Shown here one piece after another: positions 4,491 through 25,632 of a DNA stretch of 25,632 bases (positions within the stretch are counted from its first letter, which is position 1; each line of letters opens with the position of its first letter). Origin of the DNA: an uncultured Methanosarcinales archaeon (GTDB lineage: Archaea > Nanobdellota > Nanobdellia > Woesearchaeales > JAGWAF01). The notes beneath the pieces are model-generated. The model was not told the DNA's origin and ran no database searches. It was given only the letters and a program-made list of their open reading frames with translations. Made by a program: the position numbers and the translations under genes. The DNA lies in the NCBI GenBank assembly GCA_964562875.1, contig CAZLVM010000001.1, forward strand, positions 1-25,632. Direction: 5' to 3'.

Positions 4491-5114
4491 TTATAAAGTT
4501 TTCGTATACTCACCGGGGTTTTTTGTATCGTAAAACCCTCCAAGCTCTCTTTCCGGCAGGTATGTGCTTATCTTGAAGTAGGTTTTTACAGCTTCCTGGA
4601 ACCTGTATGCTTCCCTGTATAGGGTTTTCTTGTGCATTTCCATGGTATTTTTTACAGTTCTCTTCCAGAAAATTTTAAGCAAGGGTCCCAAAAACGGATG
4701 CTTTTTCCACTCATGCTTGTAGTCAATCACAAGCTTTGCCCAAATCTTTACTTCTGCTTCTCCAAAATTAGCTTTATATTTCTTGCCGTCATGCATCAGT
4801 TCAGAATCCTTAAGGCCTACAACGTGCATGTCCATATCCATGTCATATCTCCAGAATTTTGTGTTCACAGGAGTCTTGTTCATCCTCCAGTAAACCCAGA
4901 TTTCCTTGCCTGCAGTTTGGGTTTCCCTGTTTAGATAGAATGATTCATCAAATTCAAGGTCATTTCTGCTGGCATAGCCTTCTTCTACAAACCATTCATG
5001 CATTAGGACATAAAGATATTTCAGATTAAAGTGTTCTCTGTGCTTTAGCTTGAATGCAGCTGCCTCAATATACTGCTTATTAAAATCTGTATACCTATGT
5101 TTGATATGAGCCAT
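4491..5114 (-). CDS. Hypothetical protein, paralog 1 of a tandem triplet (207 aa)
   Basis: Motifs LKHREHF..LY..MHEWFVEEGY, KDSELMHDGKK, DYKHEW. TTATATA at 5143-5137 upstream. Confidence 0.85.
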   Translation of the reverse strand: MAHIKHRYTDFNKQYIEAAAFKLKHREHFNLKYLYVLMHEWFVEEGYASRNDLEFDESFYLNRETQTAGKEIWVYWRMNKTPVNTKFWRYDMDMDMHVVGLKDSELMHDGKKYKANFGEAEVKIWAKLVIDYKHEWKKHPFLGPLLKIFWKRTVKNTMEMHKKTLYREAYRFQEAVKTYFKISTYLPERELGGFYDTKNPGEYTKTL

Positions 5115-5208
5115 ACTCTTTTTTCCGTATTATTGGTATATAAGGTTTTCTATGAATATAAAAAACAAAAACCTTAATAAACAACCTAAAACACATTTTG
5201 TATTGCAT

Positions 5209-5298
5209 GTGCTCGTAGCCTAGCCTGGATAAGGCGTTAGCCTCCTACCATTTTTGGAAGAAAGCTAAAAATCCGGGGTTCGAATCCCCGCGGGCACG
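5209..5298 (+). tRNA. trnR: tRNA-Arg(CCU) with a 15-nt intron at the canonical 37/38 position (5248-5262)
   Basis: GTGCTCG TA GCCT AGCCTGGATA AGGC G TTAGC CT-CCT-A [CCATTTTTGGAAGAA] A GCTAA AAATC CGGGG TTCGAAT CCCCG CGGGCAC G. Mature length 75 nt, G discriminator, no CCA. Confidence 0.93.
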
Positions 5299-5400
5299 TT
5301 AGTGGCTGCGGCCTTCCAAACTTTGTTTGGATTTGCCGCGGGCACGTTAGTGGCTAAGGCTTTTTGAACTTTGTTCAAATTTGCCGCGGGCACGTTAGTG
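5288..5400 (+). repeat. Tandem 48-bp units: three copies of CCGCGGGCACGTTAGTG (tRNA 3' end plus trailer) separated by hairpin cassettes
   Basis: Copies start at 5288, 5336 and 5384. Hairpins TCCAAAC-TTT-GTTTGGA (5315-5331) and TTTGAAC-TTT-GTTCAAA (5363-5379). Confidence 0.95.
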
Positions 5401-5423
5401 AAAAAAGCAAAAAAGAAAGCATA

Positions 5424-6419
5424 ATGAAAAATAAAGCATATATCGTATTGTCTGCATTTATAGGGCTGCTGTTGTTAGTTTTTGTTTTGCAGGCAACAGG
5501 CCTTGAAAAGCTAAAAATACCTTTCAAGCAGTTTTCAATTCTTCATCTCATTCTTTACATTGTACTTTCCAGTCTTATGATGCTGGTAATTACCATGAGA
5601 TGGAGTCTTGTCCTTAAGGCGCATGGCTACAGGCTTCCGTTTGTCAAAATGATTCTTTTCATGCTTGCAGGAAAGTCAATCAGTTATGTAACTCCAAGCG
5701 CGCAGGTTGGAGGGGAAGCTGCCAGGACTTATCTTCTCAAGCATTCAGGAGTCCCTACTGAAAAGGGTCTTTCATCAATTATCATAGACAAGATAATGGA
5801 CCTGACTTCAAACTCAATATTTGCTATTCTTGCTTTGCCTATCATGATACTTTTCTTTCCTTTTTCAGTTTATTTGAAGATTGCAATGGGTGCAATCCTG
5901 TTAGTCATAGTATTTTTGATAGCTGCATTCTACTATCAGTCATTCAGGGGAAAGGGATTTTTCAATCACTTATTCAGATTCTTTCATCTTCACAAGATAA
6001 AGAGTCTTGAGGGCTATGAGCAGAAACTGATTGACACAGAGACAAATGTTGCGCATTTCTTTAAGCATAACAGAGTAACGTTTAGGTATGCTATATTCTA
6101 TTCAATCCTCACATGGGTAATTATGTTTTTTGAGTTCAAGATAGCTCTTCTTGTATTTGGCTATAACGCAAACCCAATTCAGGTTATACTTGCGCTTTCA
6201 ATGGTTGGATTCGCATACATGATGCCTGTTCCTGCGGCGATTGGGATACTTGAGGCTTCAGAAGCTTCAATGTTTACTCTTCTTGGGATAAATCCTGGAA
6301 TAGGAATTGCAATGAGCTTTTTAATTAGGGCAAGGGATATGGTAGTGATGCTTCTTGGAATGGGAAGCCTTTCCCACTACGGCCTGAAAATAGCAAAAGC
6401 AGCTTCAGAAAATGAATAA
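5424..6419 (+). CDS. Lysylphosphatidylglycerol-synthase TM / UPF0104 flippase-like membrane protein
   Basis: About 8 hydrophobic segments, RWSLVLK, SYVTPSAQVGGEAAR.Y.LK, IIDKIMD, PVPAAIGILE, LIR. ATG 5424 preferred because the TTG at 5364 is inside the repeat. Confidence 0.85.
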   Translation: MKNKAYIVLSAFIGLLLLVFVLQATGLEKLKIPFKQFSILHLILYIVLSSLMMLVITMRWSLVLKAHGYRLPFVKMILFMLAGKSISYVTPSAQVGGEAARTYLLKHSGVPTEKGLSSIIIDKIMDLTSNSIFAILALPIMILFFPFSVYLKIAMGAILLVIVFLIAAFYYQSFRGKGFFNHLFRFFHLHKIKSLEGYEQKLIDTETNVAHFFKHNRVTFRYAIFYSILTWVIMFFEFKIALLVFGYNANPIQVILALSMVGFAYMMPVPAAIGILEASEASMFTLLGINPGIGIAMSFLIRARDMVVMLLGMGSLSHYGLKIAKAASENE

Positions 6420-7509
6420 CCCTGTTATAATCCTGGAAGGAGCAAGGATGTTTCTCCGCTCAATTAGAGTAAGGCTTTTTGGGTTCAAAAAATACAGCGG
6501 AAATGCAGATGAAATATGCAGAAAAATAGTTGATGAGTGCTGGAACGGGAAATATTTCCAGGTAAGCAGCGGCCATTTCAGCGAGTTTTACACAAGGGAT
6601 TTTGGATGGTGTGTGGATTCATTTCTTAAGTTAGGATATAAAAAGAAGGTTTTGAAGACACTTGAGTATGTTCTTGATGCATTCAGCAAAAGCGGGAGGG
6701 TAGCAACAACAATATCTCCTTCAGGAAGGGTCTTTGATTTTCCAAAATACTCCCCTGACTCGCTTGTATTCCTTATGAAAGCGTTGGATGCTGCAAAAGC
6801 TGTGAAATTAATATCAAAATACAGGGATTTTCTTAACACAGAAATAAAAAAGTTTTATGAAAATGTAATAGATCCTAAAACCGGGCTTGTAAAGAAAGCT
6901 CATTTCTCTTCGATAAAAGACCATGCGATAAGAAAAAGCTCATGCTATGACAATGTAATGGCTGCCATGCTAAGCAGCATCCTAAAAAGGCATAAGCAGC
7001 TGAAAAATCCGCTGGAAAAATATGATTTCAAGAAAATAATATTTGAAAACTTTTGGACAGGCAGTTATTTTCTTGACGATCTTTCAGGAATCAAGACAGT
7101 AACAGGTGATGCTAACCTGTTTCCTTTCTGGACAGGTGTTTTTTCAAGCAAAATCATGATGGGCAAGGCATTCAAAAAAATTCAAGAAGAAAGGCTTGAC
7201 AGGCCTTTCCCGCTGAAGTACTCAAGAAACAGCATAAGGCAGAAGTTTTTGCTTCTAACAAAGTTTTTCACACCAAGTTATGAAAAGGATACTATATGGA
7301 TGCATATGGGTCCGTTGTATGTGCAGATGGTTGAAAAAATAGACAGGAAAAAGGCATCTCTCTACAAGAAAAAATATGGTGAAGTTATAGAGAAATACAT
7401 GAATTTTCTTGAGGTTTTTGACAGGAAGGGAAAGCCTTACAATACTCCTTTCTATTATTCTGATGAATCAATGTCATGGGCTGCAAATTATCTCACTTTT
7501 AAGAAATAG
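6412..7509 (+). CDS. Putative six-hairpin (alpha/alpha)6 glycoside hydrolase (GDE/GH15/GH63-like)
   Basis: FYTRDFGW, SPDSLVF, SSCYDN, IWMHMG and DESMSW resemble the motif layout of inverting six-hairpin glycosidases. The start overlaps the upstream stop. Family not resolvable by eye. Confidence 0.6.
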   Translation: MNNPVIILEGARMFLRSIRVRLFGFKKYSGNADEICRKIVDECWNGKYFQVSSGHFSEFYTRDFGWCVDSFLKLGYKKKVLKTLEYVLDAFSKSGRVATTISPSGRVFDFPKYSPDSLVFLMKALDAAKAVKLISKYRDFLNTEIKKFYENVIDPKTGLVKKAHFSSIKDHAIRKSSCYDNVMAAMLSSILKRHKQLKNPLEKYDFKKIIFENFWTGSYFLDDLSGIKTVTGDANLFPFWTGVFSSKIMMGKAFKKIQEERLDRPFPLKYSRNSIRQKFLLLTKFFTPSYEKDTIWMHMGPLYVQMVEKIDRKKASLYKKKYGEVIEKYMNFLEVFDRKGKPYNTPFYYSDESMSWAANYLTFKK

Positions 7510-14275: not shown

Positions 14276-14518
14276 TTACCCCCGTTTCCAGACAACAGCT
14301 CCTTTTTTCTTTACAATTCTTATTCTGTGCAGGGGAATCATTGCTTCTTCTTCACCCCGGTCAACAGCCATGAAACCTTCATCAATTCTTTTTATTTCTT
14401 CAAATTTAATCTCAATTATTTTTTTTAGAATTCTATCTTCATATCCTATTACATAATCAGAAGGATTTTCATTTTCATCCCATTTAATTTTGTTAATTAA
14501 CTCATGTATCGGTTGCAT
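14276..14518 (-). CDS. DUF504 / MJ1316-family protein (predicted RNA-end recognition)
   Basis: ELINKIKWD...YVIGYEDR...IPLHRIRIVKKKGAVVWKR matches the DUF504 (UPF0248) pattern. Confidence 0.85.
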   Translation of the reverse strand: MQPIHELINKIKWDENENPSDYVIGYEDRILKKIIEIKFEEIKRIDEGFMAVDRGEEEAMIPLHRIRIVKKKGAVVWKRG

Positions 14519-21858: not shown

Positions 21859-22031
21859 TTGCCACCAAGCTAATAAGAGCCAATGCTGCCCAGCAAACAA
21901 GAGTCATTGCCACCCAGCGAAGTACTTAATCTAAAGATTGTTTAACACGTGGGACTCCTTTGAAGAAGAAATAAAATATCAACACGTAGCGTGGCAATGA
22001 CTCAGAACTATTTTATCACAAAGCGTGGCAA
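21859..22031. repeat. Degenerate outer shell of the dispersed element, enclosing copy A
   Basis: TTGCCAC-CAAGC at 21859-21870 and AGC-GTGGCAA at 22022-22031. A second left arm AGCCAATGCTGC at 21878-21889 is identical to the copy-C left arm. Confidence 0.75.
21901..22003. repeat. Dispersed stem-closed element, copy A
   Basis: 13-bp inverted repeat GAGTCATTGCCAC / GTGGCAATGACTC around a 77-nt interior CCAGCGAAGTAC...ACGTGGGACTCCTTT...CACGTAGC. Confidence 0.9.
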
Positions 22032-22037
22032 TTGCCT

Positions 22038-22133
22038 CCATTGCCACCTAGCGAAGTACACAATCTAAACATTCTTCTGCACGTGACTCCTTTCAGGAAG
22101 CATGAATAAAAGCAGCACGAAGCGTGGCAATGG
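22038..22133. repeat. Dispersed stem-closed element, copy B
   Basis: 10-bp inverted repeat CCATTGCCAC / GTGGCAATGG around a 76-nt interior CTAGCGAAGTAC...ACGTGACTCCTTT...CACGAAGC. Confidence 0.9.
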
Positions 22134-22171
22134 TAGAAAAATATTTATACTATGCTTCTTAAAATTAAAGC

Positions 22172-22483
22172 ATGAAAATAACTATAGACACAAAAGAGGA
22201 TTCAAAAGAGGAAATCAAGAAGGCAATAAGTTTCCTTTCATCTCTTAGCGACGGAACTATCTATACAAACTGTGCAAATAATGAAAAGCCTTCCCATCAA
22301 AAGGATATATTTTCGGATGACCCATCACCTGAAGTGGGGGGAGGAATGTTCAGCATGTTTGGCAGCTCTTCATCTCCAGCCCAGGATTCTCCGTCAGATT
22401 CTTCTGCTGAAACAACAGTAGTTCTGGAAGAGGAAAAGAAAGAGCCTAAAAAAAAGCCTGAAATACAGGTAATTGAGTATTAA
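22172..22483 (+). CDS. Hypothetical protein, 103 aa, with low-complexity S/D/P/E middle
   Basis: TTTATAC at 22144-22150 upstream; 1-nt gap to archease, so it is the first gene of the archease-rtcB operon. Confidence 0.8.
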   Translation: MKITIDTKEDSKEEIKKAISFLSSLSDGTIYTNCANNEKPSHQKDIFSDDPSPEVGGGMFSMFGSSSSPAQDSPSDSSAETTVVLEEEKKEPKKKPEIQVIEY

Positions 22484-22484
22484 G

Positions 22485-22916
22485 ATGAAACAATACGAGT
22501 TTCTAGAGCACACTGCAGACGCCAAGTTTAAGGCTTATGGAAATGATTTTGGAGAGGCATTTTCAAACGCTGCAAAGGCTATGGTTTCACTGATGTATGA
22601 TTCTGAACTTGTTGCAGCATCTCACATAGAGGAGATAAAAGCTGAAGGCAAGGACATGGGCCAGCTTCTTTACAAGTTTCTTGAGGAATTTCTTTTTCTG
22701 CAGGATTCAAAGCAGTTTGTGCTTCACGGCTTTCCAAAGGAAATAAAGATAATGGAATCAAAAGGAAAATTCTCGCTGAAGGCAGAAGCCACCGGAGACT
22801 ATCTTGACAAGACAGATGAAAAATATGAGGTAAGCCCTGTTGTCAAGGCAGTAACTTACAATGAAATGAAAATAAGCGAAAAACCTTTATATGTGCAGGT
22901 AGTTCTTGACATCTAA
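22485..22916 (+). CDS. Archease (RtcB cofactor)
   Basis: YEFLEHTADAKFKAYG N-terminus, VKAVTYNEM, C-terminal VVLDI; adjacent to rtcB. Confidence 0.93.
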   Translation: MKQYEFLEHTADAKFKAYGNDFGEAFSNAAKAMVSLMYDSELVAASHIEEIKAEGKDMGQLLYKFLEEFLFLQDSKQFVLHGFPKEIKIMESKGKFSLKAEATGDYLDKTDEKYEVSPVVKAVTYNEMKISEKPLYVQVVLDI

Positions 22917-24346
22917 TGGAAAAGGTTGAGCTTGAGAAAGAGAGCGAATTTGTTTGGAAAATTCCAAAAACTGGCTCTATGAATGTTCCTGCAGTAGTTT
23001 ATGCTTCTGACAAGCTTATGGAAAACATAAAGCAGGATTTGACTCTTCAGCAGATAAGGAATGTGGCGTGCCTTAAGGGAATACAGAAGAATGCTATTGC
23101 GCTTCCTGACTCCCACCAGGGATATGGGTTTAACATAGGCGGTGTAGCTGCCTTTGACATGAACGAAGGAGTGATTTCTCCAGGCGGAGTTGGCTATGAC
23201 ATCAACTGCGGAGTAAGGATGCTCAGGACTGACATGACTGCAGATGAGCTTTTGAAAAAAAAGAATGAAATTATTGAGGAGTTGTTCAAGGAGATACCTG
23301 CAGGTGTTGGAAAGGGCGGTTCTACAAAGTTAACAAAGGATAGTCTTATGGAAGCTCTTGAAAAAGGTCCTGAGTGGGCTCTCAAGGAAGGCTATGGTAA
23401 AAAAGAAGACTTGGAAAGAACAGAAGAAGATGGAAGAATGAAGGACGCTGATCCTTCAAAGGTTTCCCAGAGGGCAATTGCAAGGGGAATGCCTCAGCTG
23501 GGGACATTGGGAGCTGGAAATCATTTTATTGAGCTTCAGAAAGTTGACAAAATCTATGACGAGAAAGTTGCAAAGGCGTTTGGCATAGAAAAGGAAGGCC
23601 AGGTTACAATGATGATTCACTGCGGAAGCAGGGGCTTGGGCCATCAGGTTGCTTCTGATTATATTCAGTCAATGGAAAACAAGTTTGGCATAGAAGGCCT
23701 GCCTGACAGGGAGCTAATCAACGCTCCAATACAATCAGATCTTGGTCAGGATTATTACAAGGCAATGTGCTGTGCAATAAATTATGCTTTTGCAAACAGG
23801 CATTTGATAATGCACTGGGCAAGGGAAAGCTTTGAAAAAATATTTGGTTCTTCAGATGGCATGGACATGATATATGATGTCTGTCATAACATTGCAAAGT
23901 TTGAGAATCATGAGATTGACGGCAAGAAAACAAAGGTTTGCATTCATAGAAAGGGCGCAACAAGAAGCTTTGGCCCTGGAAGGGAAGAAATTCCTGATGT
24001 TTATAGAAATGTTGGCCAGCCTGTCATAATTCCCGGAAGCATGGGCACTGCATCATACCTTCTTGTAGGTACAAAAAAGGCAGAGGAGCTTTCGTTTGGA
24101 AGCACTGCTCACGGCGCAGGAAGGCTGTTGTCAAGGCATGCTGCAATGAGATTAAAGAGGGGAGAGCAGGTTAAGAAAGACCTTGAGGCAAAGGGAATTA
24201 CTGTCAAGGGAGCATCAATGAAAGGCCTTGCAGAGGAAATGCCTGAAGCCTACAAGGATATTGATGAGGTTGTTCGTGTTTCTGACTCTCTTGGTCTTGC
24301 AAAAAAAGTGGCAAGAGTTGTTCCTTTAGAAGTAATCAAGGGTTAA
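22916..24346 (+). CDS. rtcB: tRNA-splicing ligase RtcB
   Basis: PDSHQGYGF, GYDINCG, GAGNHFIE, HCGSRGLGH, DVCHNIAK, HRKGATR, STAHGAGR. TAATG coupling to archease. Confidence 0.98.
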   Translation: MEKVELEKESEFVWKIPKTGSMNVPAVVYASDKLMENIKQDLTLQQIRNVACLKGIQKNAIALPDSHQGYGFNIGGVAAFDMNEGVISPGGVGYDINCGVRMLRTDMTADELLKKKNEIIEELFKEIPAGVGKGGSTKLTKDSLMEALEKGPEWALKEGYGKKEDLERTEEDGRMKDADPSKVSQRAIARGMPQLGTLGAGNHFIELQKVDKIYDEKVAKAFGIEKEGQVTMMIHCGSRGLGHQVASDYIQSMENKFGIEGLPDRELINAPIQSDLGQDYYKAMCCAINYAFANRHLIMHWARESFEKIFGSSDGMDMIYDVCHNIAKFENHEIDGKKTKVCIHRKGATRSFGPGREEIPDVYRNVGQPVIIPGSMGTASYLLVGTKKAEELSFGSTAHGAGRLLSRHAAMRLKRGEQVKKDLEAKGITVKGASMKGLAEEMPEAYKDIDEVVRVSDSLGLAKKVARVVPLEVIKG

Positions 24347-24945
24347 ATCTCAATAATTTTTCCTTTCTTTCCAACATTGATGACTTTTGTTTTCCCAATC
24401 TTTTCTTCAATGCCTTCTGCTTCATGAACATGGGAGCAGAGCATTATGTCCGGCTTAAACTTGTCAATAGCCTTTCTTATGCCTTCTGAACCTGGAAAGA
24501 ATGATGTGAACTTTTCCATCTTTGTTCCTGTTGGATGCACGTGAGTTACCATTATTGTCTTTTTTGCTTTCTTTACTCCTTTGTATCCCTGTTCTATCAG
24601 CTTGAAAATTTCATCTTCGCTCAGCTGGAACAAGCCTATGTTTGCGCCGCCAGCTCCAAAAAGACCGACATCGCCTGCCATTATTGAGTATCCATGCAGG
24701 TTTGTTGCGCCGTAAAGCTCTGCAAGAAAGTCTGCTGTTGCAACAGTCTCATGGTTTCCTGGAATCAGAACTACTTTTTCTCCTAGCTTTACGAAAGGTC
24801 CGATTATTCCTGCTGTAGAAGCTTCTGCCATTGTCAGGTCTCCGCAAAGGACAACTAAGTCAACCTTTTCCTTCTTTGCCCGTTCTGCCAGTTTCTTGGC
24901 AAGGCCTGTATCGCCGTGTATATCTCCGGCTGCAAGTATTTTCAT
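24343..24945 (-). CDS. Calcineurin-like metallophosphoesterase
   Basis: GDIHGD, CGDL, PGNHE, VTHVHP, CSHVHE, VINVG. ATG 24945 with upstream AGGTG RBS preferred over the GTG at 24954. Confidence 0.92.
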   Translation of the reverse strand: MKILAAGDIHGDTGLAKKLAERAKKEKVDLVVLCGDLTMAEASTAGIIGPFVKLGEKVVLIPGNHETVATADFLAELYGATNLHGYSIMAGDVGLFGAGGANIGLFQLSEDEIFKLIEQGYKGVKKAKKTIMVTHVHPTGTKMEKFTSFFPGSEGIRKAIDKFKPDIMLCSHVHEAEGIEEKIGKTKVINVGKKGKIIEI

Positions 24946-25019
24946 TTTATGCACCTTTGCAGATGGAGGCTTTCAAAATTCCTGATTTTGAATTGTCGCC
25001 GGCTGCAAGTATTTTCATT
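24926..25019. repeat. 21-bp direct repeat (24926-24946 and 24999-25019) of the phosphoesterase start, flanking a hairpin cassette
   Basis: CCGGCTGCAAGTATTTTCATT occurs twice, 73 bp apart. Internal hairpin TTCAAAAT-TCCTG-ATTTTGAA at 24972-24992. Confidence 0.9.
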
Positions 25020-25092
25020 GTAAGAAATCATAAGGAATATGCCTTTAAAAAGCTTTGCGGTAAACTAAGAATTAAATTACCTTAATTTAAGG

Positions 25093-25248
25093 CATTGCCA
25101 CCAAGCGAAGAATAGCCAATGCTGCCAAGCGAAGTACTGTCTTTAAACATTAATTTCTGCGTGTGACTCCTTTTTAGAATAAATAACACCATTAACACGG
25201 AGCGCAGAATTGGCTAAAAAAAGAACAAAAACACAGAGCGTGGCAATG
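25093..25248. repeat. Outer shell of the dispersed element, enclosing copy C
   Basis: CATTGCCAC-CAAGCGAAG at 25093-25110 and AGC-GTGGCAATG at 25237-25248. Confidence 0.85.
25114..25215. repeat. Dispersed stem-closed element, copy C
   Basis: 11/12-bp inverted repeat AGCCAATGCTGC / GCAGAATTGGCT around a 78-nt interior CAAGCGAAGTAC...GTGTGACTCCTTT...CACGGAGC. Confidence 0.9.
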
Positions 25249-25250
25249 GC

Positions 25251-25632
25251 TTACCTTGCCTTAACCCTTACTTCTTCGCCTTCGAGATGGACAATTGTTG
25301 AGGGCTTTCCTTTTTTTTCTCCCTCGTAAATTGCAAAGTCAATATTTGCTTTTAGGTCATGGTGCAAATCATCAACAGATGTCATGTTGTTTCCGCCGGT
25401 TTTGTTTGCTGATGTTGTGACAATTGGAATATTAAGCTCTTCAGCAACTTTTGAGAACCAGTGTTCTGGAATTCTTATCCCCACGCTGTCCATGCCCATG
25501 TTTACCTGCTTTGCAATAGCGCTTTTATTTTTCAGTTTCATGATGAGTGTGTATGGTCCTGGAAGTTTTTCAATCCATTCTTCTGCATCTTCTGTCATCT
25601 CGCAGTTTTCCCTAATCCACTCTTTGGAAGGC
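25251..25632 (-). CDS. tsaC: L-threonylcarbamoyladenylate synthase, YrdC/TsaC type (5' part outside the window)
   Basis: LPGPYTLI, SVGIRIP, PIVTTSAN, GKPSTIV. The protein ends right after the YrdC domain, with no Sua5 C-terminal extension. Confidence 0.92.
   Translation of the reverse strand, partial: PSKEWIRENCEMTEDAEEWIEKLPGPYTLIMKLKNKSAIAKQVNMGMDSVGIRIPEHWFSKVAEELNIPIVTTSANKTGGNNMTSVDDLHHDLKANIDFAIYEGEKKGKPSTIVHLEGEEVRVKAR

Follow-up and report, generated by a model that had tools for sequence, protein, structure and literature searches.

Repeated tRNA-Arg ends and covarying hairpins in an uncultured archaeon: a possible template-switch triplication kept as a pre-tRNA trailer

What kind of event, or what kind of function, leaves the 3' end of a tRNA gene written three times in a row with a hairpin between one copy and the next? 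This question is raised by a 25,632-nt stretch of contig CAZLVM010000001.1 (forward strand; hereafter the window, whose coordinates are used throughout), in which a tRNA-Arg(CCU) gene is directly followed by an array built from its own 3' end and two small hairpins. An earlier note on this DNA had proposed acceptor-stem mimics, stacked terminators or scars of repeated integration. Here, we describe the direct/inverted/direct organization of the repeat unit, variation of its copy number and a second locus of the same architecture, none of which appeared in that note. We tentatively favor, at somewhat less than even probability, a reading in which a small inverted triplication of the tRNA end arose by template switching, was kept as a structured 3' trailer of the pre-tRNA and was later amplified to a variable-number repeat.

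The tRNA gene and the array behind it are laid out as follows.

5209-5298, plus strand: tRNA-Arg(CCU) gene (Rfam tRNA model, 53.4 bits), with an intron of 15 nt (about 5246-5262), without an encoded CCA, discriminator G at 5298.
5288-5304, plus strand: repeat copy 1, that is, the last 11 nt of the tRNA (3 nt from the T stem, the 7-nt 3' strand of the acceptor stem and the discriminator) followed by the trailer TTAGTG (from the sequence).
5299-5346, plus strand: unit A, 48 nt, consisting of the linker TTA, the 5' arm GTGGCTGCGGC (an imperfect inverted copy of the tRNA end), a hairpin at 5315-5331, ATTT and GCCGCGGGCACG (repeat copy 2 starts at 5336); covariance-model match of 77.8 bits.
5347-5394, plus strand: unit B, 48 nt, planned as unit A, with the 5' arm GTGGCTAAGGC, a hairpin at 5363-5379, a T5 run at 5361-5365 and repeat copy 3 from 5384; covariance-model match of 76.8 bits.
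5384-5400, plus strand: repeat copy 3, followed by the A-rich stretch AAAAAAGCAAAAAAGAAAGCATA and a start codon (from the sequence).

The 17-mer CCGCGGGCACGTTAGTG begins at 5288, 5336 and 5384 with 0 mismatches, which bears out the exact 48-bp periodicity and the three copies reported in the earlier note. None of 100 dinucleotide shuffles reached three matches of this 17-mer, Tandem Repeats Finder assigned the array a period of 48 and 2.4 copies (score 163), and a separate repeat search recovered the identical three copies. The two 31-nt spacers between them each hold a 7-bp hairpin with a 3-nt loop, TCCAAAC-TTT-GTTTGGA (5315-5331) and TTTGAAC-TTT-GTTCAAA (5363-5379). As had been noticed before, these hairpins differ at three pairs, and every one of the three is altered on both strands. 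In each unit, the 5' arm is the reverse complement, with some mismatches, of the sequence that opens the following repeat (GTGGCTGCGGC in unit A, ATGCCCAAGGC in the related contig L007). The plan of a unit is linker, inverted copy of the tRNA end, small hairpin and direct copy; together with the tRNA's own end, the order is direct/inverted/direct. This is the order of a small inverted triplication (duplication/inversion/duplication, DUP/INV/DUP), here with exact direct copies and an inverted arm that pairs at 8-10 of 11 positions. Such a unit, with its hairpin maintained, agrees with the earlier view that the array is not a plain slippage duplication.

When folded with the next repeat, the spacer of unit A gives a 45-nt stem-loop of −27.4 kcal/mol (z −5.5) and that of unit B a 45-nt stem-loop of −17.1 kcal/mol (z −2.8). 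The long outer helix has 10 of 11 pairs in unit A (one of them G.U) and 8 of 11 in unit B; the long imperfect helix that the earlier note had seen in each cassette plus following repeat is good in the first unit and poorer in the second. In the minimum-energy fold of tRNA and array together, the tRNA 5' strand pairs with the last repeat copy. A further pairing reaches beyond the array: GCTTTTTGAACT (5359-5370, in the 5' part of unit B) pairs at 10 of 12 positions with AGTGAAAAAAGC (5397-5408), just past the last repeat. It may form an alternative helix that joins the array to the leader of the next gene, and it may also be due to chance.

Logan contigs from other sequencing runs span the array without gaps. 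Record 1 of X1 covers 4900-5467, record 13 of X4 covers 5220-5480 with 0 differences to the window, and record 4 of X6, which comes from a different study, covers 5270-5459, also with 0 differences. Because these contigs were assembled independently, the three copies are not an assembly artefact. The number of units varies among relatives. One unit is present in L007 and in record 5 of X6, two are present in the window and at least 5.5 in L006, a JGI (Joint Genome Institute) contig that is 98.8% identical to the window over 2.4 kb. The L006 units read A' B B A B B with period 48 throughout; the first five are complete and the sixth is cut. The longer array appears to be real, since its B-to-B and B-to-A junctions are absent from the window. 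Moreover, in run X3 the array is covered ~3x as deeply as the flanks and the contigs are broken within it, and run X8 has the A' variant followed by B. In L007, which represents a related species (~77% nucleotide identity, with the same flanking genes on both sides), the single unit carries the hairpin TCTGAAC-TAT-GTTCAGA, a third covariant, and TTTTTT lies directly behind it; record 5 of X6 also has a single unit, which differs in its 5' arm and has T8 behind it. Reiteration of the 3' end was not found in the other tRNAs examined (Thr and Ala; bacterial Arg and Pro).

We aligned five distinct units from three assembled contigs (window, L006 and L007); for one more variant, partial differences in Logan contigs are the only record. 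In this alignment, 100% of cells of the inner hairpin are paired, with double changes at three pairs. In the outer 11-bp helix 82% of cells are paired: its 3' strand is invariant, and its 5' strand varies, with mismatches at shifting positions. The last 18 nt of window unit A, ATTTGCCGCGGGCACGTT (17 in the unit and the following T), are identical in the L007 unit, and 12 of the first 31 nt differ. Since a third covariant hairpin exists in L007, pairing has evidently been maintained in a related genome, as the earlier note would have it. Polymorphisms between the window and L006 (C-G to U.G, and an A x C mismatch to G-C) keep or improve pairing, and G.U pairs favor the fold of the plus strand, which is the tRNA strand, over that of the minus strand both in the array and at a second locus (24923-25022). 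The alignment, these polymorphisms and this bias together indicate that the hairpin is maintained, and on the tRNA strand.

The second locus was detected with a covariance model built from the five units, which gave one extra match in the window (24957-25006, 19.1 bits, E ~0.005; 54 kb searched).

24923-25022, plus strand: a 27-nt direct repeat (25 of 27 identical) at 24923-24949 and 24996-25022, with a 46-nt spacer that contains the 5' arm TTGCAGATGGAGGC and the hairpin TCAAAAT-tcctg-ATTTTGA (covariance-model match, repeats and fold).

Its arm TTGCAGATGGAGGC pairs with the start of the second repeat copy (12 pairs, 2 mismatches), so that the DUP/INV/DUP order of the tRNA locus recurs here with direct copies identical at 25 of 27 positions. 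The frame of the hairpin is also that of the array, GGCTT-7 bp-loop-7 bp-WTTG, and the locus folds well on the plus strand only (−21.2 kcal/mol, z −2.95, vs −13.4 kcal/mol, z −0.7, on the minus strand). Its reverse complement matches the first ~20 nt of a metallophosphoesterase gene (24343-24948, minus strand), so that the repeat derives from this gene start. The start of the gene is duplicated 73 bp upstream, where the copy opens a 23-codon open reading frame (ORF) whose stop falls 1 nt short of the real ATG. In front of this upstream copy lies the TATA-like box. Record 1 of X1 backs this locus over its full length, and record 18 of X6 backs it to 24990 only (first repeat copy and hairpin). 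No source of the inner hairpin was traced in the flank when the two were compared by eye. A model-free scan for direct repeats with strongly folding spacers found two loci in the window, the tRNA array and 24923-25022, and no comparable locus in ~58 kb of other loci. The cassette GGCYT-hairpin-TTG that the earlier note proposed to search for occurs, within the window, at this one further place, which is a protein-gene start. Because the same layout sits there, the architecture is not specific to tRNA.

A family resembling miniature inverted-repeat transposable elements (MITEs) was also observed in the window. It occupies 21871-22140 and 25083-25262 and comprises three units, the first two of which are ~134 bp apart, with inverted ends GGCATTGCCAC ... 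GTGGCAATGGC; two of the units lie in tandem ahead of an archease/RtcB operon. Metagenome contigs over 25089-25185 have 35-55x depth vs ~5x in the flanks and many partial matches, suggesting that this family is present in high copy in these communities.

The array is followed by genes that had been described as an accessory-looking glycan locus, and their products are consistent with that description: an LPG_synthase_TM protein, an unknown protein and a glycosyltransferase of family 2 (GT2).

5424-6419, plus strand: gene for an LPG_synthase_TM (flippase-like) membrane protein (Pfam PF03706, E 1e-40; start conserved in L007), overlapping the next ORF at 6412-7509.

This gene begins 23 nt past the array. 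No TATA-like or A-rich box was found at −24 to −36 of it, unlike most gene starts of the window, and it may therefore depend on read-through from the tRNA promoter. An oligo-T signal is expected behind archaeal tRNA genes. No site with a hairpin plus T run is present on the plus strand of the window, and of the two units only B contains a T5; such a layout is found in L007 (T6) and in record 5 of X6 (T8). Stacked terminators, one of the earlier proposals, accordingly make a weak explanation of the window array.

How might such an array have come about? A fold-back template switch during replication at the 3' end of an ancestral tRNA-Arg(CCU) gene would append a short linker, then the last ~11 nt in imperfect inverted form, then these nucleotides once more in direct orientation, with a hairpin at the turning point. 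The single unit, which is seen in two related lineages, would be the older state. In the window lineage, slippage or unequal exchange across the 25 nt common to neighboring units would have amplified it to two units here and to at least 5.5 in the near-identical strain. The units would be transcribed as the 3' trailer of pre-tRNA-Arg. Each extra acceptor 3' strand would then be locked in its own stem-loop and so would not compete with the real tRNA end for the tRNA 5' strand. The structured trailer, together with T runs (T6 or T8 behind the single unit in relatives, T5 in unit B), may end or damp transcription before the lipid/glycan operon. The acceptor-stem likeness of the units would be a by-product, because any inverted copy of an acceptor 3' strand resembles an acceptor 5' strand. 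Hairpins flanked by repeats tend to be deleted; that the unit nevertheless survives in two lineages with ~23% divergence leads us to infer that it has been retained. On balance, the array resembles a replication accident that was preserved more than a signal built for a purpose.

Events of this type are on record. Small inverted triplications (DUP/INV/DUP with a spacer) arise by replication errors and are lost via slippage over the hairpin (PMC13334657), and template switching makes hairpins and can alter both sides of a stem in one event, giving multi-base compensatory changes (PMC8794818). The archaeal locus shares with the described cases the order of direct copy, spacer, inverted copy and direct copy, a hairpin-forming product and the alteration of this product by slippage. 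It differs in scale, with 11-27 nt here vs segments averaging ~150 bp in the described yeast and human cases, and in that the inverted copy is imperfect, the inner hairpin is untraceable to the target and the product persists across species and is tandemly amplified.

Several observations weigh against a template-switch triplication that is transcribed as a trailer. The inverted arm matches only 8-10 of 11 positions, and how the inner 7-bp hairpin would come from the target is not evident; that it copies the T loop (GTTCAAA vs GTTCGAA) has only marginal support (p ~0.04 in unit B, no significance in units A and C). The core GGCTT-stem-loop-stem-WTTG is common to both loci, which would be unexpected if they had arisen independently and hints at a mobile module. 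Of three metatranscriptome runs from the same study, none gave reads on the array region. The window lacks a T run between the array and the next gene, so termination would be weak there. The L006 array stops at the end of its contig, which makes its true length and order uncertain, and with only five distinct units aligned the covariation rests on few events.

Of the rival explanations, the one closest to the acceptor-stem mimics of the earlier note is punctuation resembling plant t-elements, in which each unit would be a mimic of an acceptor stem or minihelix (7 bp acceptor-like, 4 bp T-stem-like and a discriminator G). Cuts by tRNase Z and/or RNase P would, on that model, free the tRNA, 48-nt RNAs and a trimmed 5' end of a co-transcribed downstream mRNA. 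Every unit repeats the tRNA sequence CCG+CGGGCAC+G exactly in its 3' strand, which does not vary between species, the outer helix of 11 bp is near the 12 bp of acceptor plus T stem, and the downstream gene without a TATA box starts 23 nt past the last copy. Precedents are plant mitochondrial t-elements (PMC1920247) and, in archaea, a tRNA-like structure 5' of the 5S rRNA of H. volcanii at which tRNase Z cuts (Holzle 2008, cited in PMC3296008). However, the acceptor-like helix varies in its first pairs, which read G-C in the window and A x C in L007, with G x A at pair 2 in record 5 of X6, and unit B has three mismatches. The units have neither T loop nor elbow, and the Rfam tRNA model is blind to them at E values up to 10 (5295-5430). 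The architecture also occurs at the start of a protein gene, a place at which tRNA enzymes would not be expected to act, and gene conversion with the tRNA end can account for the lack of variation in the 11 nt. We consider this explanation rather unlikely. A copy-number-tuned switch, or contingency locus, in which each unit (hairpin plus T-rich tract) would stop a fraction of the transcripts from the tRNA promoter and so set the expression of surface lipid/glycan genes, appears distinctly unlikely. The difference between 2 and at least 5.5 units in strains that are 98.8% identical speaks for it, as do the depth of ~3x flanks and the broken contigs of run X3, the presence of a T5 in unit B, the unit type amplified in L006, and the nature of the downstream genes, which act on membrane or surface molecules (LPG_synthase_TM and GT2) and have no TATA box. 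On the other hand, unit A has no T run of 4 or more, the variation could be neutral, and archaeal termination is not known to need hairpins. Such a switch overlaps with a retained triplication and does not exclude it.

The common core of the two loci could also be read as a tiny mobile hairpin module, comparable to a nano-MITE, that inserts by GC-rich sites and duplicates its target, so that units A, B and C would be separate source copies at the same tRNA site. Two loci with the core GGCTT-(7-bp stem)-loop-(stem)-WTTG between direct repeats within one 25-kb window, and a high-copy MITE-like family of another type in the same genome, make this conceivable. Nevertheless, only two loci exist, with no further copy in the window or in ~40 kb of relatives, and Logan contigs show no excess of partial spacer matches, unlike the true MITE at 25089-25185. 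A fixed staggered cut would not produce target duplications of 12 and 27 nt. The arms follow the target instead of being constant, so that the module would have no terminal inverted repeats of its own, and the 25 nt common to neighboring units point to duplication of the unit. A module of this kind is thus very doubtful. Integration scars, that is, duplications of attachment (att) sites left at the tRNA 3' end by elements since lost, draw on the fact that tRNA 3' ends are classic archaeal integration sites; in addition, synteny breaks at this tRNA (a YchF-like GTPase gene stands beside the 207-aa gene in distant relatives) and the GC content is lower over 7-9 kb. Yet Pfam scans of 27 ORFs covering most of the window revealed no integrase, recombinase or other mobile-element gene. 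The window has only the three adjacent copies and no distant fourth one (17-mer with up to 3 mismatches, 13-mer with up to 2), with 20 kb covered downstream, and 2.9 M viral contigs yielded no attP candidate, only chance matches in GC-rich coding DNA. Furthermore, the period is exact, the 31-nt spacers consist of an inverted target copy and a hairpin, the overlap with the tRNA is merely 11 nt, and the structure is conserved and covaries in a related species. Thus, this proposal of the earlier note is not supported and seems highly improbable. A bolder possibility is that the units are modules of RNA processing and expression control, with mimics punctuating a tRNA-mRNA co-transcript and copy number setting read-through (an archaeal tRNA-derived contingency locus), or else an undescribed tiny element that copies its target end both ways; judged from what the sequences offer, this is unlikely.

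The nearest described layout is that of the E. coli tyrT-tyrV operon, with no sequence or family relationship apparent. Its 178-bp repeats (rttR/rtT RNA, tpr) likewise reiterate the 3' end of the last tRNA and its trailer head-to-tail directly behind the gene. When checked here, they had a period of 178 and 3.1 copies, each unit starting with AATCCTTCCCCCACCACCATCACTTTCAAAAG and overlapping the annotated rttR RNA. From one unit, processing of the tRNA transcript yields a small RNA (Bosl and Kersten 1991, cited in PMC3318445). The tyrT-tyrV repeats differ in being bacterial, in a unit of 178 nt vs 48 nt and in the small ORF (tpr) within the unit. The archaeal unit is a single stem-loop with the tRNA end as its 3' strand, and its copy number varies among strains. 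Rfam gave no rtT match to the array, and the likeness to the tyrT repeats is in layout only. With tRNA-like signals (plant mitochondrial t-elements, the structure 5' of the H. volcanii 5S rRNA and those of mascRNA type), the units share an acceptor-stem-like helix that, beside another RNA, could recruit tRNase Z or RNase P and so set RNA ends (PMC1920247; PMC3296008, citing Holzle 2008). Those signals have cloverleaf-like or acceptor/T-arm shapes, whereas the archaeal unit has no T loop and its terminal pairs vary. Archaeal integrative elements with tRNA-derived att repeats also leave direct repeats of a tRNA 3' end downstream of an intact gene; here, there is no element, integrase or distant partner, and the repeats are 48 bp apart and embedded in hairpins.

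Several other identities were considered and rejected. A CRISPR (clustered regularly interspaced short palindromic repeats) array, for which repeats of at least 23 nt, unique spacers and neighboring cas genes were required, is at odds with a repeat core of 17-25 nt, two spacer types that are variants of each other and the absence of cas genes from the Pfam scans of ORFs. A MITE or dispersed palindromic repeat does not agree with two loci only, arms that differ following the target and duplications of 12 and 27 nt. Inspection by eye of the sequence and folds found no boxes of C/D-box or H/ACA small RNAs, and a bulge-helix-bulge intron was dismissed, also by eye, on account of a 2x3 internal loop in place of staggered 3-nt bulges 4 bp apart. 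Nor is a degenerate second tRNA gene indicated, as only TGCCC and AAGGC align, both of which are demanded by pairing anyway. The 48-nt units are not tRNAs by RF00005: a permissive scan of 5295-5430 with E up to 10 gave no tRNA match, and only the genuine gene scored 53.4 bits; other Rfam hits to the array in such a scan were noise (E 4-10).

Relatives of the array were also sought in wider collections. A metagenome scan with a 28-mer of the tRNA found nothing, and one with the two-copy pattern returned 120 loci, all in high-GC DNA (57-79%), mostly coding repeats or chance recurrences and one CRISPR array, with no relatives among them. Exact-protein look-ups with six window proteins gave nothing beyond L006, and a protein search with the N-terminal third of the LPG_synthase-like protein had no matches. 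A genome-collection scan with the 3' 24-mer of the tRNA detected tRNA-Arg(CCG) genes in metagenome-assembled genomes of bacterial Synergistaceae (L001-L005). Their 24-nt 3' end, GGGGTTCGAATCCCCGCGGGCACG, is identical to that of the archaeal tRNA-Arg(CCU), and they have ordinary hairpin-plus-T terminators behind them and no reiteration; we regarded these matches as irrelevant.

The tRNA gene itself has a putative promoter and a variable intron.

5172-5181, plus strand: CCTTAATAAA, a putative TATA box of the tRNA-Arg gene, ~28 nt upstream of the tRNA 5' end (compared with other promoters of the window; conserved in L007).

For the gene at 5209-5298, ARAGORN predicted Gly(tcc) by default and Trp(cca) when introns were allowed, calls that result from misplacement of the 15-nt intron. 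The intron-less L007 orthologue (L007 420-496, minus strand) is an unambiguous tRNA-Arg(cct), and canonical 37/38 placement of the intron in the window gene leads to the same anticodon. Because the two agree, the gene was assigned as tRNA-Arg(CCU), in line with the earlier identification as tRNA-Arg. The intron is present in the window and L006, and no other part of the gene varies as much in its letters from strain to strain (Logan contigs). Genes for RNA ends and splicing were also noticed at 14276-14518 and 22473-24346, namely a protein with an MJ1316 domain for recognition of cyclic-phosphate ends, beside GatD, and an archease-RtcB pair; they fit a genome with intron-containing tRNAs.

The gene content of the window is archaeal (GatD/GatE, CDC48, deoxyhypusine synthase, TruD, archease and RtcB), and the nearest named relatives of the gene adjoining the tRNA are proteins of 'Candidatus Woesearchaeota' and 'Pacearchaeota'; the source is accordingly a Woesearchaeota-like member of the DPANN archaea. 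Metagenome runs of aquatic and sediment samples contain the same DNA. The break in synteny falls exactly at the tRNA (window 5115-5208 vs about 2415-2500 in L015-L018). Where relatives of the 207-aa neighbor gene, at no more than 66% amino acid identity, occur, the tRNA is missing and a gene for a divergent YchF/OLA1-like GTPase precedes in place of the tRNA-Arg and LPG_synthase/GT2 genes. The GC content drops to 0.35 over 7-9 kb.

If a template switch did produce the array, a stable, covarying, RNA-like hairpin beside a tRNA can come from a replication error, which is a reason for care when function is read from covariation. Judging from the second locus, small direct/inverted/direct rearrangements may be a recurring mutational process in this genome, and the variation in copy number among near-identical strains is a usable marker for these uncultured organisms. 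To our knowledge, almost nothing has been established on RNA processing and gene regulation in DPANN archaea. If the array is transcribed and processed, it would be the first punctuation or attenuator array of tRNA-end origin to be reported from this group.

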